DNA of 64,000 bases, taken from the NCBI GenBank assembly GCA_951406725.2, contig OX597822.1, positions 95,480,001 to 95,544,000 on the forward strand, written 5' to 3'. Every line of letters starts with the position of its first letter. The first letter of the stretch is position 1. Both the position numbers and the translations under genes were made by a program. Source of the DNA: Octopus vulgaris. Taxonomy: Eukaryota. This document shows, in pieces, positions 1,635 to 62,100 of this stretch. The notes below the pieces were generated by a model that worked only from the letters and a program-made list of their open reading frames with translations, made no database searches and was not told the origin of the DNA.

Positions 1635-1683
<49 letters not shown>

Positions 1684-1688
<5 letters not shown>

Positions 1689-1866
1689 GGAAAGTTTACG
1701 AAAATAAACAAAAAACGAAGGCAGGTGGTGTACAAACAAACAAATGTATTAGTATAGCGCTCAGGAATAGAAAAAGTCTTTTACGTTTCGACCCTACGCC
1801 CTTCCACAGAAAGATACACAGAAGAAAACAAGGAGAGAGAGAAAAAATGCGTGTAGTAGCTAACGA

Positions 1867-1869
<3 letters not shown>
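1684..1869 (-). mobile_element. Short (TA)n-flanked element carrying a variant hammerhead motif (1777-1814)
   Basis: Reverse strand reads tcttt-CTGTGGA-agggcgtagggtc-GAAA-cg-TA-aaaga. It shares ttcctgagcg...taatac...tttgtt with 42785-42992 and 54673-54861. Confidence 0.7.
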
Positions 1870-1925
<56 letters not shown>

Positions 1926-1976
1926 ATGCATGTATATGTATGTATGTATGTATGTATATATATTTATGTATATATA

Positions 1977-4505: not shown

Positions 4506-5660
4506 ATGAGTCAAAAACGTGATTTAACATCAAATGAGAAGTCCATCATTGTCTCAGAGCTTGGAAAAACAAAAACCACATCGGAAATATCAAAGATCCC
4601 GGGAAAAGTTCATCGAACTGCGAAGAAATTAGTGGAGTCTTCTGCCGTCCGTTCGAGGGCTGACAAGGGTAAATCGAGGGTTGTTTCCAGGCGTACCCTG
4701 TCACGTATAACGAAAGAAGTTGCGAAGAACACGTGTCTGACTAGTCGAGAAGTGTGGCAGAGTAGACATTTCGAAATCTACCAAGTGTTGCCCCCTGAAG
4801 CAGGTAGCCAAGAACGTAAAACCTGTTACAAGACCCCATGTGAAGGGTGTTCATAAACAAAATAGAATCAAATGGGCAGAAGACTGCATGAAGATAGATT
4901 TTTCAAAAGTTCTCTTTACTGATGAATGCCGTGCTACTCTAGACGGACCAAATGGGTGGATTAAAGGTTGGGTTGCAATTAGCGGAAATCGTTCTCATCG
5001 TTTGAGATACCAACAAAGGGAAGGCGGAATGATGATTTGGGCTGGTCCTTGGAAAGTTCCAGACGGAATTAAGGTGACATCTAATGCCTGTGCTGCCTTT
5101 TTGGAGGACAATTTTAAGCCATGCTTGAAGAAGCAGAAAGTTTCATTAAAGAGAATGCTGGTATTTATGCAAGATAATGCGCCCTCCCATGCAGCTAAGA
5201 CATCTCTGGAATACCTACAGCAATTAGGCTTCTCTGAACACCGTTTGATGAAGTGGCCAACGTGTTCACCCAAATTAAACCCGATTGATAATCTATGGAG
5301 TGTTCTGAAGAGGAAGACATATCAAGATGGACGACAGTTTTCAACGAAAGACAGCATTCTGGAAAGTTATTGTGGATGCTGCTTTGTTTGTTTGTTTGTT
5401 TGTTTGTTTGTTGAGGGAAGCGGTCTTCGTCTCTTGAGAGAAGTCCGAAACGAGGTCCTTTGCTATTCGTAAGACCCGCAGAAGAGAGAGCAGGTCAATC
5501 CCCGACACAGAGAGCATCGACGGATGTGTGGATGTGTGGACAGTAGATGATGCTCATATGAGATGCTGCTGATATAAGATGAAATAGTTACCATGACAAA
5601 TTCAATGGATAAATGCGCCAGGGACGTTCTCTCATGTGGAGGATCATACATCCATCATAA
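4506..5660 (+). pseudogene. Tc1-family transposase pseudogene (frameshifted, interrupted)
   Basis: HTH-like N-terminus (ORF 4506-4856). DDE domain motifs VLFTDECRATLDGPNGW, FMQDNAPSH and WPTCSPKLNPIDNLW. C-terminus resumes after the insertion (SMDKCARDVLSCGG). Confidence 0.9.
5384..5561 (-). mobile_element. 178-bp retroposon 3' stub with (AAAC)n tail inserted in the Tc1 transposase
   Basis: 9-bp TSD gatgctgct at 5375-5383 and 5562-5570, with (tttg)n at the left end. Confidence 0.8.
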
Positions 5661-13394: not shown

Positions 13395-14715
13395 ATAATC
13401 GCCTAAAATCAGACGTCCACTGGTTCTATCTTTCACTCTTTCACGAAAGGAAGACGGCAGAGGCCTAATCCAACTTGAAGTTTCCATAAAACGAGCACGA
13501 TAGGGCTCCAAGTGTTCATCCAAAGTAACACCGGCTGGATGATACAGCAGATAAAGCAACAAGAAGCGATTAAGAAACTGCACTCAATCTCAAAGGAAGC
13601 ATATAAATACAGACGAGGGTTTTTCCTGCCTGATTATGATGATGATAAAGACGACACATCACCCACTAAGGCAGCAAAAACGTGTAAAAGAAAAGCTAAA
13701 CAGGAAAGCTTGGAGGTAATGTCGAGACTGTGGAAAGAAAAACCATTGCATGAGCAATACCTCAAATGAGCTGGGGAAGATGATGTAGATATCAAAAGAT
13801 CATGTAGATATCAAAAGATTAAGGCGGCGAGATGGCAGAAACGTTAGCACGCCGGGCGAAATGTTTAGCGGTATTGCGTCTGTCGTTGCGTTCTGGGTTC
13901 AAATTCCGCCGAGGTCGACTTTGCCTTTCATCCTTTCAGGGTCGATAAATTAAGTACCAGTTACGCACTGGGGTCGATGTAATCGACTTAATCCCTTTGT
14001 CTGTCCTTGTTTGTCTCCTCTATGTTTAGCCCCTTGTGGGCAATAAAGAAACAAATATCAAAAGAACCCATCTGTGGTTGCAGAATGCTGGTTTGAAAGC
14101 CGAAATAGAATGATATATCCTAGCGGCACAAGATCAGAGTCTCCTCACACGTAATTATCAAGCTAATGCCACACACAATAAGGTAGACACAATGTGCAGA
14201 CTCTGCAATGAGGAACTCGAGAGTATTGACCACATTGTTGCCGGTTGCTCAATCTTAGCTCCTGCAGAATATAAAATCAGGCATGATCGAGTTGGCCAGT
14301 ACTTGCACTGTAACGCATGCTGTCACTATGATATCCCACACCCTACAACTGGTATGAACACCATCCAGAGCCAGTCACTGAAGGAGCAAATGTCACGATT
14401 CTATGGGATTATGGGATACATACAGATAGGCAAAGAAATGCCAACATATCAGACATCGTCATCAAGTACATAAGACAAAATACATGCCAGTTAATTGATA
14501 TGACAGTGCTGATAGAAATATTTTAGGAAATGAAATTTGAAAAACTGTCGAAATATAAGGATTTTGAGATTGAGATATCTAGGACGTGGCAATTAAAAAC
14601 CAAAATCATCCCTGTTACAGGTGCACAGGGAATGATCAAGAAAGGTAGTGACAAATGTTTTGACCAAGTCCCCTGGAAACCAACGATCTATGAGACTCAA
14701 AAAATTGTGTTGACA
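13395..14715 (+). mobile_element. R4/Dong-clade LINE remnant (RT C-terminus, CCHC finger, RLE)
   Basis: CRLCNEELESIDHIVAGCSILAPAEYKIRHDRVGQYLH, WKEKPLH, AAQDQSL and KLSKYKDFEIEISRTW, with stops and frameshifts. Confidence 0.9.
13821..14054 (+). mobile_element. SINE family C nested in a Dong LINE
   Basis: aaggcggcgag.tggcagaa head and gcctttcatccttt.ggggtcgataa core. TSD atatcaaaaga. Confidence 0.92.
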
Positions 14716-15290
14716 TCTTCTGATTCTAATCCCATGGGTAACTATGTATAGGGAACCTATTTCTTTATTACCCACAAGAGGCTAAACACAGAGGGGACAA
14801 GCAAGGACAGACATAGATATTAAGTCGATTACATCGACCCCAGTGCGTAACTGGTACTTAATTTATCGACCCCGAAAGGATGAAAGGTAAAGTCGACCTC
14901 GGCGGAATTTGAACTCAGAACGTAACGGCAGACGAAATACCGCTAAGCATTTCGCCCGACGTGCTAACGTTTCTGCCAGCTCTCCGCCTACTATGTATAG
15001 GGAACCGTTGAGAAAGACACCAACTGTTCTGTTGCAACACCAAAGCCAAGCAAGGAGCCAAGTTCACGATGATGTTCGAAGATCTTCTCAGGGACGCAGT
15101 GAGGAGCGTATGCGCCAAATTCCGGAGCCGTCTTCAGGACGTTGTGGAAGTCGAGGACGGTTATCTCCCAGTCATGATATAGTTGATATTTTTAGATACT
15201 TTAAAATACCTTTATTTTTAGATGGGGCATTGTGCTATCTGTTCCTTTTATGCAAATTCTCAAAATTAGCCCGAACACCTTTTACATATG
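14715..15290 (+). mobile_element. Tc1/mariner transposase C-terminal fragment, interrupted by a SINE
   Basis: SDSNPMGNYV*GTVEKDTN (compare SPDLNPxDYxVW) and VCAKFRSRLQDVVEVEDGY. Confidence 0.7.
14758..14989 (-). mobile_element. SINE family C
   Basis: Perfect 17-bp TSD actatgtatagggaacc at 14741-14757 and 14990-15006. Confidence 0.95.
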
Positions 15291-18268: not shown

Positions 18269-19455
18269 GTTTGACTTTTGCTTTATATTTGTACAAGTTG
18301 GCTCCAAGTCTCACCCAGAGACCTCAAGTGACAACAGGTTGGAAGTTCACGTTGTTGTTATGCCTAGTGTGCCATATATTTGGTTGTTTTTTGTGTTGTA
18401 CTAGTGGATGTCTAAAAAAAATGTTTGTTTTAAACCTGGAGATTACATAGAAAGTTGTTTTGCGTAGGATATGAGCAGTTCCCATGAGCACTATCTTTTG
18501 AATTTCTGCCATTTAGGGGTTTCCTGGTATCTGAGTTAGGTAGCAATCAGCCCCTTTTGCTATCATTCCCAGGACACATATGACAACAGGTATTGTTTTA
18601 GTCTTCAGGTTCCACATTTTGCTGATTTTTATTTCAAGATCTTTATATTTGCTCAGTTTTTGGTAGGTCTTGACAGATACGTTTATATCGATTGGGACAG
18701 TCATATCAATGAGGAGGCATGTTCTTTGTCTGAAGTCTTTCAATATGATGTCTGGCCTATTTGCATCTATCTTTCTGTCAGTTTGAATGGTGAAGTTCCA
18801 GAGGAGTGAGATGTGGTCATTTTCAAGCACTGGGGGTGGTTTGTGTTCCCACCAGATTTTTTCATGGGACAAATCCAGGTTTTTGCAGATTACCCAGTGA
18901 ATATATTATTATTATTATTATTATTATGTTTTTTCCTTCTTTCTTCAAATTTTCTTCCGTTTCTCGCCGAGTGTTTTCCATACACCTAGGGCAGAGAAGG
19001 GCATTGTATGCATTCCCAGATTATACGCGCAAATTCACAGATAAAATATGTATTTAAAAATTAATAAATAAATAAATTCATGGATGGATGTTATTTTCAC
19101 AGCGATAGTACTCTTCTCAGTATATGAGCCGTTCCAGTTAAAACGATTTTTTGCACTTCCTGTAGGGATGGTAAGCCTGGAATCATTTTCAAATAGGTTT
19201 CAGAGCCTTTTTTTTATCATTCCTAGAGATCCTACAATCACTGGTAATGTAGTCGCCTTGAGATGCCACATTTTTTAAATTTCCATTAGCAGGTCTTTAT
19301 ATTTACTAATCTTGTCAAATTCTTTCGCCGCTATATCGTGATCACAGGGAATACTCATGTCAATTAATAAACATATCCTTTTTGTCTGTTCTTTTATAAT
19401 AATATCTGGTTTATTGGCTTTTATAGTCCTGTACTGCCTGGTACTGCATCAGGGC

Positions 19456-28985: not shown

Positions 28986-29037
<52 letters not shown>

Positions 29038-29038
<1 letters not shown>

Positions 29039-29261
29039 CTCTTTACTATCCACAAGGGGCTAAACACAGAGGGGACAAACAAGGACAAACAAAGGGATTA
29101 AGTCAATTACATCGACCCCAGTGCGTAACTGGTACTTAATTTATCGACCCCGAAAGGATGAAAGGCAAAGTCGACCGCGGCGGAATTTGAACTCAGAACC
29201 TAACGGCAGACGAAATACGGCTACGCATTTCGCCCGGCGTGCTAACGTTTCTGCCAGCTCA
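29038..29261 (-). mobile_element. SINE family C
   Basis: Homology to 14758-14989. Confidence 0.9.
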
Positions 29262-32325: not shown

Positions 32326-32365
32326 ACACATACACACACACACGCACATGTATATGTATATGTAT

Positions 32366-32600
32366 GGCGGAGAGCTGGCAGAAACGTTAGCACGCCGGGC
32401 GAAATGCGTGACCGCATTTCGTCTACTGTTACTTTCTGAGTTCAGATTCCGCCGAGGTTGACTTTGCCTTTCATCCTTTCGGGGTCGATTAAATAAGTAC
32501 CAGTTACGCACTGGGGGTCGATCTAATCGACTTAATCATCCCTTTGTCTGTCCTTGTTTGTCCCCCTCTATGTTTAGCCCCTTGTGGGTAATAAAGAAAT
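32366..32600 (+). mobile_element. SINE family C
   Basis: Full-length homology to other C copies. Confidence 0.92.
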
Positions 32601-32925
32601 ATATATGTATATGTATATGTATTTGTGTATGTATACGAGTAAGCACACAAATGCAAAACTAGGGGCAAAAATAGTACTCGAGAACCGGAGACAGAGTAAA
32701 ATACTTTCATTAAAGCAGAAAAAAAATCTTGCCTAATAGTTTGTGAAAACTTTTAAAAGCATATATTAGTTCGTTACGATAAGCCGTTTGTGTCTGAGGT
32801 ATGTGTCAACATATGTGACTATTAGTAGCACATAAAAAATATGTATTGTGTATAGTGAATAACATATATCTATCCCCGGATGGAGTACTTTTTCGTTGAT
32901 CCTATCTCCGCGAAACAGTTCATTA

Positions 32926-38944: not shown

Positions 38945-39580
38945 GCGGTATCACGACTATGATTATATGGGCCCAGAAGTTTTGCACTATTTGTTAACAG
39001 TTCTTTGTGTTCTGAGTTCAAATCCCACCATAATTTACTGGAGCTGTTGACTGAACCTTTTGTCTGATATGTATAAGACATAACACACAGGATGTTTCCG
39101 TGGCATTCACGCATCATATAAGATACTTATTCCCATTTTTTAAAAGCAATAGAGTAACTTGTGACTTATGAAAGGCAAGCTTTGTATTACTCAGACTTTA
39201 TGAAACAAGTGCTAACTAAATTCTAAAAATAAGCGTGGACATTTTGGACAAACTTCCGAAAATGCTTTTGACAGGAAAAGGACTAATCTTTCATCCGGTG
39301 CATAATCATCACCTGGCACGCGAATGATATTAGTGCACTCCACCCTGTTGCAAGAATTCGAACTATGTTTCCACTTAAAGGATACCTTCCTTCCTCCAAC
39401 CCAGCAGTCTCGGATATACTCTAACGGGACAAGCTTACTACTTCCCGGTAAAAAAGGGAGACTAAAAAATCGAAAAATGTGAGATCTTCATCAACGCGAT
39501 CATTTTGGTGCACTAAAAATTGCAACTAAATCACCCTTGAATCTCCTCCACTGAAATGCTATAGACAAGAAGAAAAAATG

Positions 39581-39813
39581 TATTTCTTTACTACCCACAA
39601 GGGGCCAAACACAGAGGGGACAAACAAGGACAGACAAACGGATTAAGTCGACTAGATCGATCCCAGTGCGCAACTGGTACTTAATTTATCGACCCCGAAA
39701 GGATGAAAGGCAAAGTCGACCTCGGCGGAATTTGAACTCAGAACGTAACGGCAGACGAAATACGGCTACGCATTTCGCCCGGCGTGCTAAGGTTTCTGCC
39801 AGCTTACCGCCTT
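39581..39813 (-). mobile_element. SINE family C
   Basis: TSD acaagaagaaaa at 39565-39576 and 39814-39825. Confidence 0.93.
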
Positions 39814-41341
39814 ACAAGAAGAAAATATAAGGTAATGTGGTACTGTGTATGAATTGCGCCCAGGTAAAAAAAAACAAAAAAAAACAGAAATGCCTTCAAT
39901 CAAGGATTTGTTGGATCAGCATGGAGCTGGGATTAATAAACAAGTGGACGAGAAAAACAAGAAATTAAAAAATGTAAAATAAAAGGACAGACATCGAGGG
40001 CTTTCGTAATATCTCAGAGAACACAAGTCCGAAAAATTTGCGGAAGGAAGGGTATAAGATTTAACCAACATTCAGTCCTTGATTAGGACATTTTGCATCG
40101 ATGCTGGAAGTATAAATGCAAAATGACACACAATAGGATTTGAACACAGTACATAGGGAAGGAGATTGTTAATCTCGTACCGTTTCTTGCCCCCTTGTTG
40201 CGTCTGTTCCCCCGGCCACACACTAACCACAGGTCTTTCTCCCCAGAATATTGGCATTCTGAAATCTTTTTAACGTCATTCCTGTAGGTATTGACCGACA
40301 ACAGCGTAAAGTAACATTAACAGTATAAAACTCATTTGATCTGAGAGAATCTGCAACGTTAATGCGCATTATTCCTTCCTCTAGATTCGGCAATTAGAAA
40401 TAGAACATTGTGATTTATTTTTTAATGGCTTCGTCCGTAAAATCTCAACATTTATAGCAACTTTGAGAGGGGCGAATTAGTCCTCAGATGAATGAACCTG
40501 ACTTGAATACTTACAAAAGATTGGACTCTTCTTAACGAGACCACGGCTAAAGTCAAGAACAGGAACGGTCCTTCTGACTAACTTCTCACACAGTTTCCCT
40601 CTAGCAAATTAAATTTTCTAGGCTTTGTTTACTATGAAACCATGTTAGAATCACTTTTGGGATTGAATGTGAAAACGATGTCCGTCCAAAGCGAACGTCT
40701 AACCTCACATCCATCCCTGCGCTCTACCGATAGCAACAGTAAAGACTTATTGTGTAGCAGCGTTTACTTAGTTGTTTGATCTAGCAATTTAGCAAACTTA
40801 TCTCCGTTTTGTGCTCTACCATTTTAAAAACATGGAGTCCTAAGTAAATTACGGACGATAAGGCTGCAGCTGTAATACCAGAAGCTTACACTGTTTAAGT
40901 ACACGGAAGAAGAAAATTGAATCTCGGTATGATAACAAGTGAGCAGTTCATGTTCTTTTGATACAATATTGGAGTGGATGAACTGGGGAATTGAAGAAAG
41001 TGTAACGAGGGGAAAAAACCTCATTATTAACAGTAGAGTTAATGCTACGGCATTGGTTTCCGAGGGGACATCCCCACCACACACATTCCATATCAGCAGC
41101 GGAAACTCAAGTACACTTTAATTTATGAGTGTGTAAGAGATCTAGGAAAAGAAATTAGAATAATACCTTATCTGTTTGCTTGTATGGTGTAACCGACACA
41201 ATAATGCAACATGAACAAATATCTAAAAATAAGCAGCCAAAATCACTGACTTAGCAGAAAGTATGATTCCTCATTATATTTTAAAAATAAATTCTGTCAC
41301 TATATAAACAACGAAGAAGCACAAATATAGTGAACATATAT

Positions 41342-42590: not shown

Positions 42591-42706
42591 TTGTAGGGAA
42601 AAGTGTATATAAAAACAATTTCACATTAAAGTAAAGGATCAATCAATACTTTTTACTAGAATGTATATATATATATATATATATATACATACATATATAT
42701 ATATAC

Positions 42707-42759
<53 letters not shown>

Positions 42760-42784
42760 TAAACACATGTATATATATATATAT

Positions 42785-42989
42785 CAACATGTGACCTCGT
42801 GAGCACCGCCAGCAATTTTTTTTCCTCTGTCTTCCCTTCTCGGGATCTTTCCTTCTCCTTTGTTTCCGACGAAGAGCTCCGCTCGAAACGTTAAACCCCC
42901 CTTCTTCCCTTCTTTCCTGAGCGTCCAATAATACTTTATTTGTTCCACGTCCTCGCGTTGCTGTGTTTTTTTGTGTTTTCCTGTTTGGA

Positions 42990-42992
<3 letters not shown>
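42785..42992 (+). mobile_element. Short (TA)n-flanked element with a minimal hammerhead (42862-42896)
   Basis: gttt-CCGACGA-agagc(tcc)gctc-GAAA-cg-TT-aaac. Second copy at 54673-54861. Confidence 0.8.
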
Positions 42993-43036
<44 letters not shown>

Positions 43037-43228
43037 TAGAGAACAGTATTCTCTGTATAGAATACACTTCATAGTGCACAGGAGATTTTAACTTGAGCAG
43101 GTAAAGAGGTCAAAGGCAGGACAAGCAAGTCGATATACAAAATATACTTAAATACATTTAATACAAAATATGTACAAATGGACATATATAATAAAGTCCG
43201 GCTTACACAAAATAGAAAAAACTATCAA

Positions 43229-43390
43229 GGCGCAGGAGTGGCTGTGTGGTAAGTAGCTTGCTTACCAGCCACATGGTTCCGGGTTCAGTCCCACTGTGTG
43301 GCATCTTGGGCAAGTGTCTTCTGCTATAGCCCCGGGCCGACCAATGCCTTGTGAGTGGATTTGGTGGACGGAAACTGAAAGAAGCCTGTC

Positions 43391-43422
<32 letters not shown>

Positions 43423-43641
43423 GTGTGTGCTTGTGTGTCTGTGTTTGTCCATCTAGCATTGTTTGACAACCGATGCTGGTGTGTTTACGTCCCCGTCACT
43501 TAGCCGTTCGGCAAAAAGAGACCGATAGAATAAGTACTGGGCTTACAAAGAATAAGTCCCAGGGTCGATTTGCTCGACTAAAGGCGGTGCTCCAGCATGG
43601 CCGCAGTCAAATGACTGAAACAAGTAAAAGAGATAAAAGAG
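43229..43641 (+). mobile_element. SINE family B
   Basis: Full-length homology. Confidence 0.93.
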
Positions 43642-43675
43642 AAAAATTAAAGGGGTTGAGTAGAAGTTTTATGAG

Positions 43676-43775
43676 TCCTACAGCTGTTTCGGGGGGGGGG
43701 GGCTTGGTGGTCCAAAATAATGATTGCGAGTAACTTGATTCCATCATCGGAGAACAAGAGCTCCGTCTTCAGGGA
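43676..43775 (-). ncRNA. Hammerhead-like motif with a long stem/loop II
   Basis: Reverse strand tcc-CTGAAGA-cggag...(~70 nt)...cccc-GAAA-cagctg-TA-gga. Stem III is palindromic. Confidence 0.6.
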
Positions 43776-43947
43776 AGTATTTTACATCTGAGCTGTTGAC
43801 AGAATGGAGTTTAAAGATGGAATTTAAAAATTCCATCTGTAAACTCTGTTCCATATTTTTTGCATATCGATTTGCTTAACCTGCTTGTCCTTACATTTAC
43901 TCTCCACTCTCTCTTTCTTTCTCTCTCGCTCTTTCTCTCTCTCTCTT

Positions 43948-43980
<33 letters not shown>

Positions 43981-44013
43981 TTCTTTCTCTCTTTCTCTTT
44001 TTATCTCTCTCTT

Positions 44014-44092
<79 letters not shown>

Positions 44093-44146
44093 CAACTATT
44101 TCTAGTAAGTTCAGTATGTGGCAAAGTAATTTATTTTACTAAGCCC

Positions 44147-44197
<51 letters not shown>

Positions 44198-44205
<8 letters not shown>

Positions 44206-44525
44206 ATCACGTGACCGACCAGACCCTCAGATGTCACTACACATCGCTGGTCACAATGCGTTCGCATTGTTTTAGCCTTCGAATGACGCCACCCTGCTGG
44301 CGAAGCGAGTAGGCCAATGTATATATATTTGTTTGTTTACATTTATACACACATGGTTGTATGGTTGTTATATATATCTATATATATATATATATATACT
44401 CTTTACTCTTTTACTTGTTTCAGTCATATGACTGCGGCTATGCTGGAGCACCGCCTTTAATCTAGTAACTCGACCCCGGGACTTATTCTTTTGTAAGCCC
44501 AGTACTTATTCTATCGGTCTCTTTT
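44198..44525 (-). mobile_element. 3' fragments of SINE tail E (44198-44318) and SINE B (44398-44525) in (TA)n
   Basis: tcacgtgatcacgtgaccgacc terminus and (actctttt)n tail. Confidence 0.85.
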
Positions 44526-44789
44526 GCCGAACCGCTAAGTAACGGTAGATATATGTATGTATGTGAGTGAGTGTCCTACAATTCTCAGTCATCAGCTTAT
44601 GAAAGATCGCATATAGGATTGTGAAGGACATAGGTCTTCGCAGCAAAGCCTTATATATTAAATAATTTAATGAAGATATCTTCGTTTTAGTCTCTGAATT
44701 CACCAATTAGCGCTATAAATAAAAGAGAAAATGTGTAGGTGTCATGGGACCACCCTCTCTAATTCCATTCATGACATTATTTGGCTAAG

Positions 44790-45700
44790 ATAGGGTACCA
44801 CCAACATTTACCCAGGCATCAATGTTATGAATAACATTATGTTATCAAAAATTGATCTAAGTAGCCAAAGTTGATCAGGATCTACTATAACGCTTCTCTG
44901 TTGAACTTGTCAAGGGCCTTTGACATGTCCACAAAAACTTGAAACAAGTTTTGGCATTGCTTGTAACAGTTCTCTTGGACCTGACGAACAGTAAAGATCA
45001 CATCATCTGCGTTTCTGTTGGGTCTGAAACCGCGTTATGTTTACGGCAAAATCAAGTTTGCTATATTCTTATTCTATCTTGATAGGATGATTGAGGCCAG
45101 TATATTTCTTGCAGCAAAAAGTAGTAATATTACACTATAATTCCCGCAGTCCTCTCGTAAAGCTTTGTTTTTATATAATGATATTACTATAACTTCTTTC
45201 CAGTCCTTTCGTATTTTACTGGCTCTCCGGGTTTCCAGAGTTAGATCATACGTAACATTTGTTAATCTTACAACGTAAAATTTACTCATCTCTTTTCCAT
45301 CAACTTTTCCATCAACGTTTCTTCGACTAAGTTTCTTAATACCGATTTGTACTTCCTCTGCTAAGTGGGAATTAAGGGAGTAACTGACTAGCCCTTCTTT
45401 AATATTTTTATATAGGCAGGGTCTACTTGGGATTATTTCGCCACTCACCGAGATGTTTATTCTTTTAGACTACCTTCCTAGATTTAAGAGGGGATCTATG
45501 ATCGTAGATTTCAGCCCAAAGATTTGACTTAACAAACTATAAAACACCTATGTGATTTTCGCATCAGCTGCTATTTGCATGTCAGTTGCCTCTCTCGACC
45601 ACCAGTTTTGCTATGTAATCCGCAGAGTTCTTTGAACTGAGGTTTTTGCACGCATGAAATTTTGCTACGTATATAATATGACATTTTGCTGCGTATGTAA
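44790..45700 (-). mobile_element. RTE-clade LINE RT remnant
   Basis: DWKEVIVISLYKNKALREDCGNYS...ILASIIL, then GFRPNR and FVDMSKALD-like RT motifs. Confidence 0.85.
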
Positions 45701-46066
45701 TTTCATGAGAGTAGTTTGTGCATCTGGAAAATGCAGCTTTCCAACATTTGGATGTGTTGGGAGTTGGGTTGTACCGAATATCTCAAACTTACAATTCAGA
45801 CACAGATGATATTATGTCACAAATTAAGTGGTACCACGATCCTGCCGATGGCATTTAATTTACCACGTGATTGTCCGCAAAGGAGATACGCAGAATGTCT
45901 GCAATGTTCGTTCTCTGCACAGTGCTGAATGGAGGCCTGACCATACTTTGGTAAGACCCAAACTATACTTGGTAATAAAACTGGCTGCCAGAATTCATAA
46001 TACAATGTATATACATCCATACATTCATACTTACATATGCATATGCATATACATACATACATACAT

Positions 46067-46158
<92 letters not shown>

Positions 46159-46429
46159 TGTATATAAATAAATGGGGCAGGCAACAGGTTGCTTGGCCGC
46201 ATACCGAAAAATTAGAAATAGCAGTCAAGGCTGTTTATTTCTATTTTCTACAAGTGGGACTCCACACACGACATATCCCTGTAATTCACATCTGCAAAAC
46301 AGAAGGAATAAATAACGAAAACAAAGTCTGGCAGTTATTTGCGAACATCATGTTTCTGGATTATAAACATATTGAATATATATTTCATATATATTTTTAA
46401 TATATATTTCATATACATTGCATATATAC

Positions 46430-46722
46430 TTCACATCCGTCATCGGCGCAACTCTCCATTGAAATAGATTTATCAAATGCTACGTACCTCGAACCTTCTG
46501 ATCATGCGACATCAAAAGAGTTGAAGAAAGCGAGCATGGGCTAAACCTAAATAGACAGTTGAATTCGTAAATCTTCCCTCCAAAATTTTGCCATGCGCAT
46601 TACAAAAATAGTTCCTTAGAGGTAGAAACTATGAGTTGTCGTAGGGGTGTCATGAGCCTCAAAAAGAAAATAACAAAACATGGTACAAGACTTCAAGGCT
46701 CAACTTTTCATACACCCCTCGT
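46430..46722 (+). mobile_element. Mariner 3' fragment
   Basis: YLEPSD (compare SPDLAPSDY) and a terminal aacttttcatacacccctcgt mariner-like TIR. Confidence 0.55.
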
Positions 46723-46723
46723 G

Positions 46724-46788
<65 letters not shown>

Positions 46789-47431
46789 GCATATATATAT
46801 ATGTATGTACATATATATATATATATATATACATATACATCTATATATATCTAGATTTTGCATGTATATACATTTATGTGTGTGTGTATGTATGTATGTA
46901 TGTATGCATGTATGTATGTATGTATGTATGGATGGATGGATGGATGGATGGATAGATGAATGGAATGATAGATTGCAAAAGTTTGTCGTAGACGCCGACG
47001 TTTTGATGGAGTTGGCATCTTCAGACTATAACTTCTCTAGTCTTAGATACTGGCAATATGTTCGTGTTTGACTTGTGGGCGATGTAATACAGTGCGTGCG
47101 ATGTCAGCATAGTTTATAAAGTAATATCTTTCAGAAGTAAAAAAAAAAGAAAGAAAAATAATGATTGTAAAGTTTGAATTATAAAAACATATTATAGATG
47201 ATTTTTGAGAGGAAGGATAATAAAAATAAAAAATAAATGAAACTAAATTTGAGCTAAAATGTCTGAATGCATGAAAAACTTGTAAAAAGAGAAGGAAGCG
47301 GACGAAGGTAAATAGTAGTAGTAATGATGATGATGATGATAATACATATAATAACAATAGTAACAACAATAAAAATAATGATCAATAACAAAGCAATGAT
47401 GATGATGATAATGATGATGATGAGGACGATG

Positions 47432-47462
<31 letters not shown>

Positions 47463-47591
47463 GGATGATGATAATAAGTGGGGAAGGAAGAAGAAGAGTA
47501 ATAAGAAAAGAAGAATGAAGACGAAAAATGAAGAAGAAGAAGAGGAGAAGAAAAAGAAGAAGAAGAAGAAGAAGAAGAAGAAGAAGAAGAA

Positions 47592-47623
<32 letters not shown>

Positions 47624-47804
47624 AAAGGTTCTTCCAGTTTTTATCCATTCAAAAGAGCTTAGCTCAAATTCAGTATAGTTTTTTTCTCTTATTCATCTAC
47701 TCGATAACCGAAAAAGAATTCTCAACATCATCATCATCATCATCATCATCATCGTCGTTGTCGTCGTCGTCGTCGTCATGGCTGTTGTTGTTGTTATTAT
47801 TATT

Positions 47805-48352
47805 ATTGAATGAGAGAGCAGTGCATGCCATCAAAATGACACTGGGGTAAAATATATAAAACCAAGTATACCCATCATGACTACCCGTCTGATAAGGGTA
47901 CACCAGGCTCATGCATCACAGCATATGTCCGCGATATGGTAATCTCATATCAAGATAAACAGCACATGACCTTGCAGGTGGGGCCCAGTTACAATTTTCA
48001 TCAGGTGGAGTAGCCCATCATGCTCAAAAGGTCCTTGAACAAGAATGTTGAACGGAACACCCATGTTTCCAGAGGTGAATTGTCCAAACCACAAAGAATT
48101 CCTCTCGACACATGGCTATGTTGCTCCCCCATTACTTCTGCTCGTGATCGACGATGCACATATCGTCAGCCTCTAAGGGACATGCTCAACTGGTTAAGGT
48201 CAAACAACTGACAAGCAAATTTGTGGTATTGAGCAGAATATTTGCTGTAGCCCATCTTTTATACCAAGACAAAACAACGTACATGATAACACTTTCAATC
48301 AGTTAAGATCAGAAGCCATGAGAGCCACTACCTGGTACTGCTTCAGGGCATT
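47805..48352 (-). mobile_element. Family F (TAA)n-embedded element
   Basis: Homologous to 12818-13348. Confidence 0.85.
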
Positions 48353-48380
48353 TACTGCATCAGACCATTTATTATTATTA

Positions 48381-48445
<65 letters not shown>

Positions 48446-48451
48446 TTTTTT

Positions 48452-48935
48452 ACTTTTAATCTGCATGTTTGTTACAATCATACCCAGAATCCTAGGATAA
48501 GAGATGTTACAGTATGGCTGACAACTTGGGGAGAGCAGGTGACAGGAGCAGGAGTGAAATATATACATGTAATACAGCACATTTAAATTGATAGGATTTT
48601 TCTAAGGATGTGCGCAGTACATGTCAGCCCAATTTTTTAGATTTCTTTGAGACATGCTTGTCCTGGGATACTGTCTAGACGTTTCTGACTTCCCTTTCTT
48701 ATCATACCTAGGGCACTCAAAATAATAGGAACACTTCTCCCTTTAAGATGTCACATCTTTTGCATTTCAATTTCCAGGTTCTTATATTGAATTAATTTAT
48801 CAAATTCCTTTACATATATATTTTTATCCGTCAGAACACTTGTGCCTATTTGGGTGCAACTATTTTCTTCACTGTCCTTAATGACTATTTCTGGACAATT
48901 AGCCTTGATATTTCTGTCGCTTTTCACTGGAATTC
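48452..48935 (-). mobile_element. R4/Dong LINE 3' end
   Basis: DRNIKANCPEIVIKD...KEFDKLIQYKNLEIEMQKM. The 3' UTR is homologous to 28140-28305. Confidence 0.85.
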
Positions 48936-49338
48936 TTCCATTATTATTATTATTATTATTATAATTTTCTATCCAACTTTTCTTTACTTTAAAATCTATG
49001 ATTTTATAGACCCTGCATACATTGAACTCATTACATTCCACTAAGAATGTTAACCAAAACATTTGACTAGTAGAAAATACTTAAGAAACAGCAGCGTAAG
49101 GAAGCCAGTTCTCGACGAAATCCCTGCCAAATTCTTGTTCCGAAAAATAAATTATGTAATCTAATGGGCTGTTTCTTTAATTAATGTTTGACTCTTTTTA
49201 TGTTTCATTCTTCATAAAATATGCAAGCATATACATACATAAACGTACATTTGCACACACAGACACACAAGCATACATACACACATATGTATACATGAAT
49301 ATATGCTTGTATATTATTTTCGTATATATATATATATA

Positions 49339-49413
<75 letters not shown>

Positions 49414-49496
49414 GCAAACCTCCCTCTCTCTCTTTTTCTCTTTCTCTCTCTTTTACTATCTCTCCATATTCATATATGTATATGTATGTATATATA

Positions 49497-52043
49497 CAGT
49501 GGTGCCTAGATTTACGATTTTAATCCGTACCGTGACGGAGCTCGTAACGCAAATTATTCGTATGTCCAATCAATTTTCCCCATCGAAATGAATTGAAATG
49601 CCATTAATCCGTTCCCCGCCCCACCAGAAAAACACCCCAATTCTTTTTGTTACAGATTTTTAAATAAGAAAAATGCACTTACAAATAACGAATATTGTAT
49701 AAAAAAAAACAATACAATAGAATGTAGTGTAATAGACAGGTTTTATTAAGTACTAGCAGTATCACCCGGCGTTGCTCGGGTTTGTAAGGGAAATAACTAT
49801 ATAAGCATTTTTTTAGAGAGTTATAGCCAGAAAATAGCAAAAAATGCATTAAAAATGGAAAAAAAATGATGGTAAATTTTTTTTTAAATCGTTGACTCAT
49901 CGTAGACATTTTTAGAGAGTTACTTCCCTTATATAATAGCAAAAAATGCATTAAAATGGAAAAAAATGATGGTAATTTTTTTTTAAATCGTTGACTCATC
50001 GTAGACATTTTTAGAGAGTTACTTCCCTTATATAATAGCGAAAAAAATGCATTAAAATGGAAAAAAATAACGGTAAATTAAAAAATTTTTTTAAATAATC
50101 GTAGACTCATCGTAGACGCGCGCTAATACCCAGAAGGGCTCGATATGAATCACGACTATAAGATACCCGGTTTTGGTTAAACTGCACCGCAAAATGTGGG
50201 AGTAGTTAGGAATCTAAATCGAAGGGGACAGACACTCACACAACTACAGTTTTATATATAAAGATAATGTGCAACATTTGCCTTGGACATCAGACGACTT
50301 GATGCTGACGGAGGTAGAGGAGAAAGGCTCTACTGAATAACTGACGCTTCGGGTTCAAGTCTTTCAAAGTACGTTTCACTTTCATCTGCAGGCCACGGGT
50401 TCTTCCACGCAGAGGTCTGTCCTCATTGTAACACCCTGCCAGGCCATATCGATAATTCTGAGGCATATCACGATGTTATCGCACGTCCAGTTGCAACTTG
50501 TTCTGGGTGTTTCTTTTGAACAAAGTCTGAATGCTTTTCACACAACCCCAACATTTCTTTTATCACATTGTAGAGATAACCTCTTCTGCTTCCACCGCGT
50601 CATCTATTTCCTGCAAAATCTCCGTGTGCTGCTGCTTTAGTAACTCCTTTAGCTCTTCTGTTGTCAGTTCCTCAGAATGATCCTCGATGAGCTTGGTGAT
50701 GTCATCTTCATCCATGTCCAGGCTCATGGACTTGTCGAGGGTACAATCTTTCCACCACTGCCGCTTCGGGTTCAAGTCTTTCAAAGTACGTTTCAGACAT
50801 AATCTCAGGCCACGGGTTCTTCCACGCAGAGGTCAATGTCCTCATTGTAACACCCTGCCAGGCCATATCGATAATTCTGAGGCATATCACGATGTTATAG
50901 TGGTCCTTCCAGAACTTTCGAAGGGTGAAGTCTGTGCTCTCTGTCACCTCAGAGCAGCGGCGGAACAGGTACTTGGTGAAATTAGAAATCATCTGCTGGT
51001 CCATGAGCTGCAGGGTAGGGGCGGTGTTGGGTGGAAGGTAGAGAACCTTTATAAACTTGAACTTTTCGAGGATGTCATTCCTTGGAGTTTAGATGGGTGA
51101 GCAGGTGCCAGTGTCACAGTTGCGAGAAGGATGTATCCTTGCAGGCTGGTAGATTATTTTCCGGCAAGAGTTCTTAGGTAATCATCATCTGCCTTCATAT
51201 CCGTGCTCGCTGCCTCACCATGCCTGATAAAGGAGTGAATGCCGGTCCTCTTTTTAAAATTCTCAAACCAGCCCGACTGACTTGAAACGATTCATCCAAT
51301 GCCTCGTTAGGGCAAGTGCCTGGGGGGAGGTCTGCTGCAGAATCTTCCTTGGCATCGTCTTCTAATAAAGCACTGCCTCGTCACAGTTGCTGAAGATTAT
51401 AGCCTCCGTCACGGTATCTCGTGCGAGCTGCTTCTCTCTTAATCATACCAGTAGCTTCTCCATATTTTCATGGATAGATGACCGCTGTTTAGAAATTATT
51501 TTAACGCTCTTGATGGGCGTTATAGCCTTTATCGACTCCTGTTTCAGTATAGTGCAGATCATAGAAGTGCTACGCCAAATCGGCTACACGCATACCTTGG
51601 TCATGTCTTTCCATAATTTCTTTCCTTAACCCAATACACATCATCCGCCTATTCTTGCCAGCACTCCTTCACATTCACTTTCTTCGGATCCATGGTTGGA
51701 AAAACAAAATTTTACAAAATAATTGCGAGCACAACACTTATGCTTCTGTAGCTTGCAACGACTAAGTAAGCATTTTATCACCTGTCTAGCTAACGATCCA
51801 CCAACGATCTTCGCACTTGCTAACGTGCATGTCTGTCTAGCTATAGAGTGAGACACGGGATGCTGGGCAGATGTTATGGCGTTCACTGTGACGTTCGCTA
51901 CGACAACTAGCGGCGGGAGTGTATCTAAAGCTGGCTCGTAGCCCTAATTTTAGCTCGCAACCCGAAGCAAAATAATCGGCCGAGAGACGGCTCGTGTATA
52001 GAAAACTCGTTAGTTCGGACACTCGTAAGAAAAGGTACCAATG
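49497..52043 (-). mobile_element. Tigger (pogo) DNA transposon, inactivated
   Basis: TIRs cagtggtgcctagatttacg / cgtaagaaaaggtaccaatg with TA flanks. TIGD1-like remnants MDQQMISNF...TLRKFWKDHYNIVICLRIIDMAWQGV; start MDPKKV at ~51693. Confidence 0.88.
49753..50264 (-). mobile_element. Non-autonomous Helitron nested in the Tigger element
   Basis: Reverse strand 5' A|TCTTTATATATAAAA ... hairpin cccgagcaacgccggg ... CTAG|T. About three internal ~98-bp tandem units (49806-50115). Confidence 0.85.
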
Positions 52044-52064
52044 TACATACACACGCGCGCACAT

Positions 52065-52126
<62 letters not shown>

Positions 52127-52242
52127 ATATATTTTGTTTTTCCAACCATGGGTCCGAAGAAAGTGAATGTGAAGGAGTGCTGGCAAGAAGAGGCGGTTGA
52201 TGTGTATTGGGTTAAGGAAAGAAATTATGGAAAGACATGACC

Positions 52243-52476
52243 AAGGCGGCGAGCTGGCAGAACCGTTAGCACGCCGGGCGAAATGCGTAGCCGTATTTCG
52301 TCTACCGTTACGTTCCGAGTTCAAATTCCGCCGAGGTCGACTTTGCCTTTCATCCTTTCGGGGTCGATAAATTAAGTACTAGTTACGTACTAGGGTCGAT
52401 ATAATCGACTTAAATTCGTTTGTCTGTTCTTGTTTGTCCCCTCTATGTTTAGCCCCTTGTGGGTAGTAAAGAAACA
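52243..52476 (+). mobile_element. SINE family C
   Basis: Full-length homology. Confidence 0.92.
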
Positions 52477-54602
52477 TATATGTGTGTATGTATATAACTT
52501 TTGTTATTGTCACTTAGAAACAAAATGAATATTTTCTACAATGTGTTCGCGTTATTCTTCTTCCATTTTCCTTAATATATACCTACACACACATGCATGC
52601 ACACACACGCACACACACGTACACACATATTCATACACTCATGCACATACACGCACACAACTGTGCGTGTTTCTATACCTCTAAATTTACAATAGTTGTA
52701 ATGTTATTTAACCCGTCTAAAAGTGCGGAGTCGAATTAAAACGAAGTCTGTCGCACCAGGAGAGATTCCACCTGTCTTGACATGTGCACAGAATGAAGTA
52801 TCCGTGTCCAACCTCTAAATGTGTACGGAACACTTTGCTACTTAATGCTATACACAATCGAAAAACTTTCAATAGAATATAAAATATTAAAGAATTAGTT
52901 TTAATGGTCAATGCACAGCAGTAATATAACAATACACCGATGATATTACAATAATTTATCGAATGAGATCGTTAACTTTCTACAGGGTCCTCACCTACAA
53001 AATCACCCAATAAATCTTCTTTCATATCTTCATTGACCATTACTCTTCTAGCAGATACACGCACAAGAACATTCTCAAAGACTACACAATGAATCAATGA
53101 ATTTGCAAAGTAACCAGAAAAAAAATTGATTCAGTGAAATGATTTCCTCACCTCTTCAGGAAAATCAAAAATCAAAAATCAAGACCCCCAAATTCACTGA
53201 TTTCGTTATCAACTTTCATATTTTCTATAAATAGATTATTTAGATGCTTTTAAGGAAATCATTTTGGGAGACAATACAAAAAAAAAAAAAAAACAGAAAC
53301 CAAAGCAACTATATTGCTGATGTGATACAAACATAGGGCAACCTTGGACCAGACTTTGCACCATTAAACATAAAAATGGTGAAATAAATGATCCAAAGAT
53401 CGCTTTAAATTATGCAAGAAAAAGAAATCAAAGGAAAGCTACAAGTGTGGCAATATTTTATATTCACCATTAAACAGAACACTGATCGTTAAAACATTAT
53501 AGAAAACCATTAACAACATGAATGTCTTTATCTGTTCCTTGATTTTATCCTATGGCACGATAACGACATCAAAAGATATATGCACGTATATGCAACAATG
53601 ATTTTTATCATGCATTACATACTATACATAATAATTAATTGAACAATTGATAACATCTTTCCTTAACCTGGAATCTTTTGTTTTAAAAGAAAACAATAGA
53701 CGAAAGTTCAAAAATTATTGTACTAAGAAATGTAATAGTCTCCTACCAGTACATGAATGGTTAGGAAATCACAATACTTTATTATATTTTACTGTGTCTG
53801 CTGGAACTAACAAATAATAATACCGAATAGCAGAGCTTTTTACATTCCTCTACATGCCATCCAAATACTTGATAAATAGGAAAATCCTTTCAAATGTCTC
53901 CATTAAGCTACACAGTTTTTTTCTTATCATACTGTTCAATGACACTCTCTATACTCTTAATTTATTTTCAATGTTACATGATCTCGGGCAAAAAACACAT
54001 AGCATAACACATTATCCCAAGCCGCAATCACTGCCTAATGAAGGTTTCAATTTTCTTCCCCTCCAGCTATCAATGAAAATGTTATTCCCGTTAAACAAAC
54101 AAATCACTGATGTATTGAACTCACAGGAGTAAACAACATAATGTCTGACCAGCGATTTTTCGGAGCTCTATAATGAATCAGTGTCTCCATTTTGGTGCTG
54201 TCCACAGTGCTCTATCGTATTCATTTAAAAATATACATGCGTTCCAATCTAAATTCTCTTTTATGCCATTTTTTCATTCACACACACACTATCTTTGCTG
54301 TAATTACTTTTGAATATGAAATGAATTTAACAGTTGCATTAAACAGGTATTTGGGAGCATGCATTAACATGAAATTGTGATGGAAGATTTTAACTCTAGA
54401 TCGCTTTAAAATAGGAAGCTTTGCATTATAGAATGAGTTAAAGATTTTTGCCTACTAAAACAAACCCGATATCTCGACTATTTTTACATTTTTGAATACT
54501 AGTAGAAATTCTATAAAGAAGACTAAACTTTGCAGTATAAATTCTTCATTCGTTCTATGTACACTAGTTACCATAGACAAAAAAACCTATTCTTGACAGA
54601 GC

Positions 54603-54672
<70 letters not shown>

Positions 54673-54677
<5 letters not shown>

Positions 54678-54858
54678 CGTTGGCGATTTTTTTCCCTCTG
54701 TCTTCCCTTCTCTGGATCTTTCTTTCTCCTATGTTTCCGACGAAGAGCTCCGCTCGAAACGTTAAACCCTCCTTCTTTCCTGAGCGTCCAATAATACTAT
54801 ATTTGTTCCACGTCCTCGCGTTGTTGTGTTTTTTTTTGTGCTTTCTTGTTTGGATTAA

Positions 54859-54861
<3 letters not shown>
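54673..54861 (+). mobile_element. Short (TA)n-flanked element with a minimal hammerhead (54733-54767)
   Basis: The 35-nt HHR motif is identical to 42862-42896, while flanking sequence differs at several sites. Confidence 0.8.
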
Positions 54862-54926
<65 letters not shown>

Positions 54927-59539: not shown

Positions 59540-62100
59540 GGCGATGGGAAGGTGGTGAAGCATGCAGACCTGACGGGTTGGAAGCATGTAGTCAGTGTCC
59601 TGCACGTTGGCGGCTCATGCTAAATATAAAGTCGTTTCCTTGTCGCCCAAGACAGCGGTAGAATTCGGTTGCTCTATGGATATATGAGCAGTTCCATTTA
59701 GAGAGGGCACTGCTCACCCGGAGGCCGGGAAGGTTCTGGAAAAGGTGAAGCAAAAATTACCTATATCTGGTCAGTTTAACGTGACAGAATGATGTCCACC
59801 CTGGATGGAACTTGAACATTTCATGTCGGAATGTGCGCACTCTGTTGGATAACAAAAGTGATTGTAGGCCTGAAAGACGCACTGCACTTGTTGCTCGCGA
59901 GCTAAACCGCTATAACATTGATATAGCCGCACTTTCAGAGACTCGTACAAAGGTGATGGTCAGTTTGAGGAAGTAGGAAGTGGATACCCGTTTTTTTTTG
60001 GAAGAGGAGGAAGAAGGAGGTGCGCAGAGAGGTTGGTGTTGGCTTTGCGGTTCGATCTGATATCCTTAAGAAGTTGTAGGAGCTTCCTGTTCATATAAAT
60101 GAACGTCTAATAACTCTACGATTGCACCTGAAAGGTAGGCGGTTTGCTACTCTAATAAGTGCTTGTGCACCTACTTTGACTAGTTATGATGAAGATAAAA
60201 CTATATTTTATACCCAGCTGAGAGCCATACTTAGGAAAATCCCCAATTCTGATAAAGACATTCTACTGGGAGATTTCAATGCCAGGGTTGGAACAGACTG
60301 GCAAACATGGAACTCTCTAAGAGGTTTTGGTGTAGGGAAATGGTTAGCAATGGTGTCATGCTGCTGGAGCTTTGCAATGAACATGGACATTACATCACAA
60401 GCACTCATTTCATGCACAAAAGTAATCACACAACAACGTGGATGCATCCAAAGTCTAAAGTTTGACACTTACTAGATTTTTGTCATCATCCGTAAGCGTG
60501 ACATCTATGACATTTCTAATGTCATGTCCTTTCATGGGTCGGAATGCTCGATAGACCACAGTCTAGTGCGAGCAAAGTTCCGGATGATGATTGTGAGAAA
60601 AGGCGGTGAGCTGGCAGAAACGTTAGCACGCCGGGCGAAATGCGTAGCCGTATTTCGTCTGCCGTTACGTTCTCAGTTCAAATTCCGCCGAGGTCGACTT
60701 TGCCTTTCATCCTTTCGGGGGTCGATAAATTAAGTACCAGTTACGCACTGGGGTCGATGTAATCGACTTAATCCGTGTGTCTGTCCTTCTTTGTCCCCTC
60801 TGTGTTTAGCCATTTATGGGTAGTAAAGAAACAGATTGTGGGGAAAGAGAGAAGAAGGCCAGTCGGCATTCCTCGGTGTTTGAATTTCCACAAGATATAT
60901 TATGGTGCGTTGAGGAAAGAGTTTCAAACTCGCTTGTCCAGCATTGAAAATACTTCAGTATGGGAAGATTTTCAAGACCAGGTTCTTCAATGTGCTGAGA
61001 TATGCTACTGCCAGACAGAGAGACTGGTTTGATGGAAATAAAAGCTGAAGTTCAGCGGCCATTGGTTGTAAAGCACCTGTTCACAATGTATTGCTGCACA
61101 GAGGACTTTCATCTGTGCAGCGAAACCTAGCACTTTCCCAATATAGCAGTGTAAAATCACTACAGCAAAGATCTCTCAGGAAGATGCAGAACACTTGGTA
61201 GGAGGATCTTGCTCGTGATGTTCAGGCAGCTGCTGATGGAAATGATAGCAAGAAGTTTTATCATCTTATGAAGCAAGTTTATGTGCCTAAGAGTTCCGCA
61301 TCAGCTCCTTTGCTTTCCAAGGAAAATCAGCAGAAATCACAGGTAGCTGGATCGAACACTACTCTGAACTCCTAAACCATGAGTCAGTTGTGGATGAAAC
61401 AGTGATTGAAACTATGCAACAAAGGCCTACCGTTGGTTTCTTAAATTCCACGCCCTCAACAGATAAAGTAATGACATCGATAAGTAAATTGAATCTTGGT
61501 AGGGCACCTGGAAGGAAGGATGGAAATTGCTCTGAGGTTTTGCGATTTGGTGGTAATTACATTATACAATCCCTTCATGAATTTATTAGTGTAGTCTGGA
61601 GGGATGGTGCAATGCATAAGGATTGGAAGGATGCAATTATTCTTCCTCTCTATAAAGGAAAATGAGCCAGAACAATGTTTGGTAACTACAGAAGTATTGC
61701 TCTACTATCAGCTGCTGGCAAGGTTCTGGCAAATATTCTTCTCACCCGCCTGAATGGGTGTCTCGTAAATGATGTTCTATCTGAATCTCAATGTGGCTTT
61801 CGATCTGGTAGAGGGACAATGGATATGATTTTAACAGCAAGACAGATGCAGGAGAAGTACTCTGAGCAGAATATGGATCTTGTCCAGGTAATCATTGATA
61901 TAACGAAGGCCTTTGATACTGTGAATAAGGTCTTGCTATGGAAAATACTTGGCAAACTTTGTATCTATGCTTTGTATCTGAAGTTAAATCCTTTCATGAT
62001 GGGATGAAGGCTTGGGACAATGTTGGTGATGACATGTTGGGACCCATTCCTGTAGAGAATGGTGTCAAACAGGTTGACATCCTTGCTGCTTTTCCTCATT
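59540..62100 (+). mobile_element. RTE-clade LINE with 5' end, EN and RT N-half, decayed
   Basis: NVRTLLDN..RPERRTALVARELNRYNIDIAALSETR, ISACAPT, ILLGDFNARVG, DWKDAIILPLYKGK, NYRSIALLS, ESQCGFRSGRGTMDMI and DITKAFDTV. Confidence 0.93.
60601..60833 (+). mobile_element. SINE family C nested in the RTE
   Basis: Imperfect TSD gattgtgagaaa / gattgtggggaaa. Confidence 0.92.

Follow-up and report, generated by a model that had tools for sequence, protein, structure and literature searches.

Three short non-coding units, designated here A, B and C, lie within a window of 64,000 nucleotides of the Octopus vulgaris genome (assembly GCA_951406725.2, contig OX597822.1, positions 95,480,001 to 95,544,000 of the forward strand), and each carries a motif that resembles a minimal type I hammerhead ribozyme (Table 1). 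To judge by their relatives elsewhere in this microsatellite-rich genome (2.8 Gb in 227 contigs), the units are likely to be 5'-truncated 3' ends of Penelope-like elements (PLEs), or solo pseudo-long terminal repeats (pLTRs), left as short, dead-end products of reverse transcription.

An earlier note on this DNA, made from the sequence alone, had singled out an identical 35-nt motif in A and B, and the letters agree at all 35 positions. The note also described the surroundings of the two motifs as different, which is correct in that the flanks diverge (76% identity upstream and 81% downstream of the motif in global alignments), but they are homologous nonetheless, with 88% identity over ~190 nt by BLAST. 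Because their flanks differ yet are homologous, A and B represent two subfamilies of one repeat, and a motif identity of 35/35 given 83% flank identity has P ~0.0015. Unit C can be aligned to A and B, over the hammerhead and a downstream TTCCTGAGCG block, as a distant relative. The compensated stem I ascribed to it is present, as a swap between G-C and C-G relative to A and B, but stem II is broken in the window copy, where two private changes (GGGC/GGUC against GAGC/GCUC in the family) leave a predicted pairing probability of 0; the window copy of C is thus a decayed one. As had been claimed, (TA)n is found on both sides of all three units, and none contains an ATG-initiated open reading frame (ORF) of more than 44 codons or a strict RNA polymerase III (Pol III) A or B box. 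A relaxed hammerhead scan of the window returned no motif beyond those of A, B and C, an Rfam search of the window at E<=1 returned microsatellite noise and no hammerhead, and ORFs and tblastn disclosed no PLE coding remnant in the window.

Table 1. Units, hammerhead-like motifs and (TA)n targets, in window coordinates
Feature	Position	Strand	Remarks
Unit A, solo pLTR (3' end), PLE subfamily A, Neptune-type by motifs	42785..42992	+	5' end at the ~205-215-nt boundary
Minimal type I hammerhead-like motif of A	42862..42896	+	Core CCGACGA (U4C), triplet GUU; predicted cut, placed by hammerhead numbering, after 42892
Unit B, solo pLTR (3' end), PLE subfamily B, Neptune-type by motifs	54673..54861	+	~20 nt shorter than A at the 5' end
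Minimal hammerhead-like motif of B	54733..54767	+	Identical to that of A (U4C, GUU); predicted cut after 54763
Unit C, solo pLTR (3' end), sister PLE lineage C	1684..1869	-	Full-length young relatives in L276-L294
Minimal hammerhead-like motif of C	1777..1814	-	Core CUGUGGA (A6U), triplet GUA; two private changes disrupt stem II in this copy
(TA)n target, 5' side of A	42664..42784
(TA)n target, 3' side of A	42993..43033
(TA)n target, 5' side of B	54638..54674
(TA)n target, 3' side of B	54862..54925
(TA)n target, 3' side of C	1636..1685
(TA)n-rich target, 5' side of C	1869..1976

Parent elements

Walking upstream from the A/B and C families to coding sequence led to the parents of the three units. 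Unit A differs by 5.8% substitutions from the pLTR that lies 3' of a reverse transcriptase and endonuclease (RT and EN) ORF at locus L173, unit B by 1.6-2.2% from ORF-linked pLTRs at L166, L125, L136 and L140, and unit C by 4.3% from the ORF-linked pLTR of L076/L091. The earlier note had offered two origins for the units. Its suggestion of solo pLTRs mobilised by a PLE is borne out by this match, at 1.6-5.8%, to pLTRs of elements encoding RT and a GIY-YIG endonuclease in the same genome; its suggestion of a free-standing minimal retroelement or retrozyme finds no support, as the units correspond to 3' ends of PLEs that bear an ORF, and their 5' ends vary.

At L125, two B-type pLTR hammerheads 5,368 bp apart enclose a frame with the order RT, C(x4)CxxC, GIY-YIG. 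A protein search returned dozens of copies with equal scores, which define the youngest family, Y, ~6.2 kb in length, with a 949-residue ORF (an open frame in L156); across the first 3,250 columns its copies differ from one another by a mean of 12.7 substitutions. The young C-type family, Cy, is ~4.5 kb long, and 15 of 19 EN-bearing loci have the A6U motif downstream under a strict pattern. The 949-residue frame is open in 5 of 22 near-identical young Y units (L146-L185); among the broken frames, 12 of the 22 stop at residues 182-183, four at 304-305 and one at 30, and since the proline-rich linker contains poly-C runs, these breaks may reflect assembly error, slippage or a frameshift site.

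Like other EN-bearing PLEs, the parents possess a single ORF with RT and C-terminal GIY-YIG and occur as partial tandems (pLTR-ORF-pLTR) whose upstream repeat varies in length. The L156 protein matches Pfam RVT_1 at E 0.001 and GIY-YIG at E 0.011, both short of the curated cut-offs, and RVT_1 passes its cut-off in L129; at E<=1e-30 there are 842 homologues, with RVT_1 present and GIY-YIG also found in many. The linker of L156 has the form C-x4-C-x2-C and is followed by C-x2-C within GIY-YIG and by two histidines, a pattern judged by eye against rows in the supplement of Craig et al. (2021, PMC8557442). The CX2-5CxxC linker and the CCHH arrangement in EN exclude Poseidon and Hydra, the C-terminal position of EN excludes Naiad, and the long linker resembles the Neptune rows of that supplement and is unlike its Nematis rows, so that the parents are putatively assigned, from motifs, to the Neptune type. 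They differ from the Neptune clade of PMC8557442 in the long, (CA)-rich 3' untranslated region (UTR) of Y. Within this low-complexity region of ~3 kb (L156 5960-8990) lie two islands, both GC-rich and CpG-rich, with a possible structural or regulatory role. The octopus entries in the same supplement are Naiad and Hydra families and not the present one, and a 2026 repeat annotation of Octopus vulgaris gives PLEs 6.83% of the genome, with 30 recently active Penelope families (PMC13282606); hammerheads are not mentioned in its supplement. A different PLE-like RT family, rich in AT, lies near some copies (L143 2522-1209, minus strand, and L142).

Variant cores and conservation of the motif

The motif has the architecture of a minimal hammerhead, namely stem I, stem II, an extra base after A9, and a palindromic stem III without a loop, the last as the earlier note had described it. 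In the hammerhead alignment 89.8% of cells are paired, versus 16-50% when the alignment is slid. Minimal hammerheads have been reported from PLE pLTRs, mostly solo and of the dimer type with GUU triplets (Cervera and de la Pena 2014, PMC4209133), and an insertion bias of PLEs towards (TA)n has been described as well (PMC4209133, PMC8557442). With the metazoan examples of PMC4209133 the octopus motifs share the loop-less palindromic stem III, the short stem I, the extra base between positions 9 and 10.1, the G10.1-C11.1 pair, the U-rich upstream flank and the prevalence of solo copies of truncated PLEs. They differ in the core: the published consensus is CUGANGAH, with U3-A8 as a reported core variant, whereas U4C (in A, B and Y) or A6U (in C) is lineage-wide here and canonical CUGANGA cores are confined to minority subfamilies. 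Thus the cores had rightly been called non-canonical, but the triplets are not unusual, GUU being common in the published PLE rows (PMC4209133) and GUA a natural triplet.

Variant cores are abundant. The genome holds 8,215 exact matches to a 33-nt pattern of the A/B motif (0 for the reversed control) and 15,886 matches to a family C pattern that permits only A or T at position 6, so that PLE ends of the two kinds are at least this numerous. Among the first 100 matches listed for each, A/B cores are CCG (U4C) in 72 and canonical CTG in 28 by hand count, and C cores have U6 in 97 and canonical A6 in 3, with any of the four bases at N7. CCA, the product of CpG decay on the opposite strand, has only 193 matches; this rarity implies that the C4 and U4 forms were each amplified as such. 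Motif calls in 70 Y copies gave CCGACGA/GUC in 58 and CCGACGA/GUU in 1, with 1 copy cut inside the motif and 10 without a call; 24 of 30 Cy copies have CUGUUGA/GUU and 6 have no call. U4C and A6U are therefore the cores of the youngest, near-identical full-length families and not decay, and the variant cores are, as had been suspected, the family consensus.

Core variants of this kind are known as rare single cases. U4C occurs in a viroid, which is viable although activity is reduced, and A6C, of low activity, in a phage (Perreault et al. 2011, PMC3088659); here, by contrast, the variants extend over thousands of copies and young full-length elements. A6U is absent from the text of PMC3088659, and a search of the second supplement file of PMC4209133 gave no CCGA- or CUGU- core. 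In the papers searched no account was found of these families or of lineage-wide U4C or A6U, the single hit for A6U (PMC11662667) being concerned with a twister; cores of this kind may, however, be among the PLE hammerhead variants of Lunse et al. 2017.

Conservation of the motif depends on the level at which it is viewed. Between Y and A/B, 33 of 35 motif positions are identical, while the flanks are 47-68% identical and fourfold sites differ at 27-30% (P ~0.001), and in contigs of four organism labels no variant reaches >=5% within the motif, both flanks being variable. Among 60 inserted A/B copies, recovered with an anchor outside the motif, divergence is 2.9% in the motif and 3.2-3.8% in the flanks. 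The motif is conserved between subfamilies but decays like its flanks in inserted copies, a combination that points to selection in the parents and not in the solos. Across lineages, variation is found at N7, N17 and loop II but nowhere else in the core, which is the pattern of hammerheads. The stem I swap is found as CG in 4, GC in 4, another pair in 1 and a gap in 1 of 10 hand-picked rows, and represents one event inherited by a lineage, hence one compensated pair; stem II is nearly invariant and so uninformative for covariation. The TTCCTGAGCG-like block, 15-25 nt past the predicted cut (window 42926-42935) and followed by TAATAC, is conserved in A/B, Y and C; the block might be a pairing partner for the 3' strand of stem II, or else an RT recognition signal.

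Copy ends and competing explanations

The 3' end of the copies is fixed, 97-105 nt past the predicted hammerhead cut, and cleavage is therefore not what makes it. A TA run of >=8 follows it in 55 of 60 copies of A/B, 60 of 61 terminal copies of Y and all 30 of Cy, whereas the figure for random places in the window is 3.7%, in agreement with the TA targeting proposed earlier. A fixed end would follow from internal initiation of RT at the pLTR end, as in the anole Poseidon element PAc, where RT starts internally downstream of the hammerhead (Frangieh et al. 2024, PMC11167929). The octopus units share with PAc AT-rich targets and a fixed insertion end of this putative origin, and the distance from hammerhead to initiation is 85-92 nt in PAc, as subtracted from the coordinates of PMC11167929, versus 97-105 nt here. 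The PAc hammerhead has a canonical core, cleaves only with protein and has no reads at the cut (PMC11167929); the octopus units, unlike it, have variant cores and genomic copies that pile up just 3' of the predicted cut.

The 5' ends cluster at two points. Among A/B copies, 38 of 60 start 193-213 nt from the 3' end, in a set from which 10 of 70 loci were dropped by a one-base anchor shift that removes copies with C after the pattern (A-type), and 8 of 30 Cy copies start at 207-219 nt (P 2e-6). The discrete module of ~200 bp described earlier is real in this sense, although it is not an independent family. In each family the boundary has a TCA trinucleotide, which may be an initiator, with an ATG a few bases after it; just inside the ~213-nt boundary, C-family copies (L276 ~7290 among them) have a CGCCATNNT motif that resembles a YY1 site such as those at LINE-1 starts. 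This pile-up at ~205-215 nt likely marks a transcription start. In Drosophila, Penelope transcription starts within the upstream pLTR (PMC2377424). The second cluster belongs to Y (U4C/GUC), in which 8 of 70 copies end 5, 5, 5, 6, 9, 9, 12 and 12 nt past the predicted cut, three of them among the 30 loci taken first and five among the held-out 40 (P 6e-5 for the latter under a uniform model over 60-220 nt), and only two ends fall between 93 and 212 nt. These ends may go back to self-cleaved templates, of which they would be a genomic footprint, or to RT that stalled at the motif. Two further clusters were disregarded, one at 669-674 nt that consists in part of alignment breaks at a poly-T run and one at 592-593 nt that includes a likely duplicated pair beside a gap. 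At L429, a Y copy has its 3' UTR joined directly to a point 6 nt past the predicted cut, with the hammerhead deleted, possibly by a template switch.

Upstream pLTRs of full-length Y copies range from 118 to >3,000 nt, and none of 49, de-duplicated by hand, ends at 60-117 nt, a range in which 8 of 61 terminal copies do end (Fisher p 0.008). Per 450 nt there are 0.5 substitutions between the two pLTRs within a Y copy and 3.2 between copies; 7 private variants are found in both pLTRs and 9 in one only, some of the latter at alignment edges. The tandem arrays that a retrozyme would form were sought, and among the first 100 matches listed per pattern, which cover chromosome C1 starts only, there are no head-to-tail arrays at unit spacing; one pair of units lies 219 bp apart with a TA spacer, among 41 matches of one motif pattern. 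Full-length young PLEs do form head-to-tail arrays of 2-3 elements (C10:97.80-97.83 Mb, C16:15.98-15.99 Mb and C12:80.78 Mb).

A scheme can be proposed in which the element's endonuclease nicks (TA)n, and RT, with an internal start at the pLTR end like that demonstrated in vitro with the anole PLE, would copy towards the 5' end of the RNA. RNA that begins at the pLTR transcription start would give the common solos of ~205-215 nt, hammerhead-cut RNA the 85-92-nt solos of Y, and circular or multi-unit RNA the long and more-than-unit copies, the long upstream pLTRs and the homogenised pLTRs. The variant hammerheads would be, in all likelihood, slow, protein-assisted ribozymes under selection in the parents that decay neutrally after insertion. 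We regard the PLE explanation as a whole, with dead-end solos in (TA)n and variant hammerheads selected in the parents and neutral afterwards, as quite probable. Its most specific part, that Neptune hammerheads of the octopus kind (U4C, A6U) cut in vivo with the element protein, so that linear cut RNAs would yield the 85-92-nt solos and religated circles the long and more-than-unit copies with homogenised pLTRs, is held tentatively and is on present evidence doubtful.

Several observations weigh against this account. Folding predicts an inactive monomer hairpin as the preferred state and places the double hammerhead 13-21 kcal/mol above the dimer minimum, and stem I of Y contains a U-U mismatch. 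The near-cut pile-up is clear in Y alone, with 3 of 60 A/B and 2 of 30 Cy copies giving no clear excess, and none of the Y ends coincides with the exact cut, the nearest lying 5 nt short of it. In Y the ~210-nt boundary shows only weakly (3 of 70 copies at 213-219 nt), and upstream pLTRs lack it. In the C10 triple tandem, units 1 and 3 are alike over the first 3,250 columns but unit 2 has 3 differences, a non-identity that argues against one rolling circle. The nearest ORF-linked relative of subfamily A among the loci compared stands at 5.8%, its solos at 1.7%; the clade assignment is one by motifs; and hammerhead mutants of the anole PLE inserted unimpaired in vitro, where no reads ended at the cut (PMC11167929).

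The alternative that fares best accepts the same PLE origin and opposes the ribozyme step only. On this account, which is plausible although not the one we favour, the motif is a hammerhead without catalytic activity that persists for its hairpin or because it binds protein, and the Y pile-up comes from RT stalling ahead of the hairpin or a bound protein, a close rival for that cluster. U4 and A6 are core positions, and U4C and A6C lower activity in vitro (PMC3088659); the monomer is predicted to fold into stable alternative hairpins, with U6 paired to A15.1 in Cy; Y copies stop 5-12 nt short of the cut and never at it; and A/B/Y agree in loop II and N7 as well, beyond catalytic need. However, across lineages it is N7, N17 and loop II that vary and the catalytic positions that are fixed, and ends at 60-117 nt are confined to terminal copies. 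Moreover, the hairpin of Cy is the most stable (-10.2 vs -8.8 kcal/mol), yet Cy has no clear pile-up, and homogenised pLTRs fit circles, which need cleavage.

A second alternative keeps the units as a self-propagating non-autonomous family, comparable to a short interspersed nuclear element (SINE) or a monomeric retrozyme, that arose from a pLTR and borrows the PLE protein. That 57 of 60 A/B copies are <=213 nt would suit it, as would the 58 matches to a pattern upstream of the boundary against 7,230 downstream (the two patterns differing in length and stringency), and the smallest distances of subfamily A solos are those among themselves, every ORF-linked copy compared being further away. The units also share with metazoan non-LTR retrozymes (PMC7229834; bioRxiv 10.64898/2026.07.22.740005) a short non-coding make-up, a type I hammerhead and a relation to pLTRs. 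Retrozymes, however, form head-to-tail arrays, with canonical hammerheads in PMC7229834, whereas these are dispersed solos with ragged 5' ends, derived from a PLE 3' end, with one minimal hammerhead per unit and, unlike SINEs, no Pol III A and B boxes. B-type solos are, moreover, 1.6-2.2% from ORF-linked pLTRs, the same boundary occurs in young solos of Cy, whose identity to full-length copies is 98-100%, and the anole PLE requires sequence downstream of its initiation site (PMC11167929) of which the solos have no counterpart, so that we consider such a family improbable. It is most improbable of all that nothing but CpG decay, or drift in dead copies, produced the variant cores, even though C4 lies within a CpG and most copies are old and broken, since decay would convert C4 to the canonical U and not the reverse, CCGACGA occupies 59 of 60 Y copies with a core called and CUGUUGA 24 of 24 in Cy, C4 is found in 72 of the first 100 A/B matches and U6 in 97 of the first 100 C matches, and CCA has only 193 matches.

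Other repeats in the window and wider bearing

The window also contains many copies of another interspersed repeat of ~240 bp (13820-14058, 14758-14989, 29036-29259, 32349-32628, 39578-39814, 52243-52493 and 60600-60840), a further copy of which is inserted in the 3' UTR of L125. Broken frames at 4741-5472 (+), 18513-18905 (-), 45074-45469 (-), 50708-51088 (-), 60080-60475 (+) and 61291-61665 (+) look, by eye, like Tc1-type transposase, DDE transposase and long interspersed nuclear element (LINE) proteins. Contigs from four runs, guessed to be RNA, cover 23-30 of 30 bins and show no convincing splice joint; starts, ends, strand and level are unreadable in them, and they are not used as evidence.

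The function of PLE hammerheads has been called unclear (Craig et al., PMC8557442), and the one purified PLE inserted without cleavage in vitro. To this the octopus families add U4C and A6U in the youngest families, a motif identity of 33/35, the ~205-215-nt pile-up and the Y ends beside the predicted cut. Descriptor searches that require CUGANGA would miss most of the at least 24,000 motifs. The genome thus offers young full-length elements, a selected motif, two core substitutions and countable insertions beside a predicted cut, so that the hammerhead question becomes testable with short RNAs and one protein. If the variant hammerheads do cut in vivo, the octopus elements would furnish the hammerhead-circle model of PLE replication with in vivo evidence.

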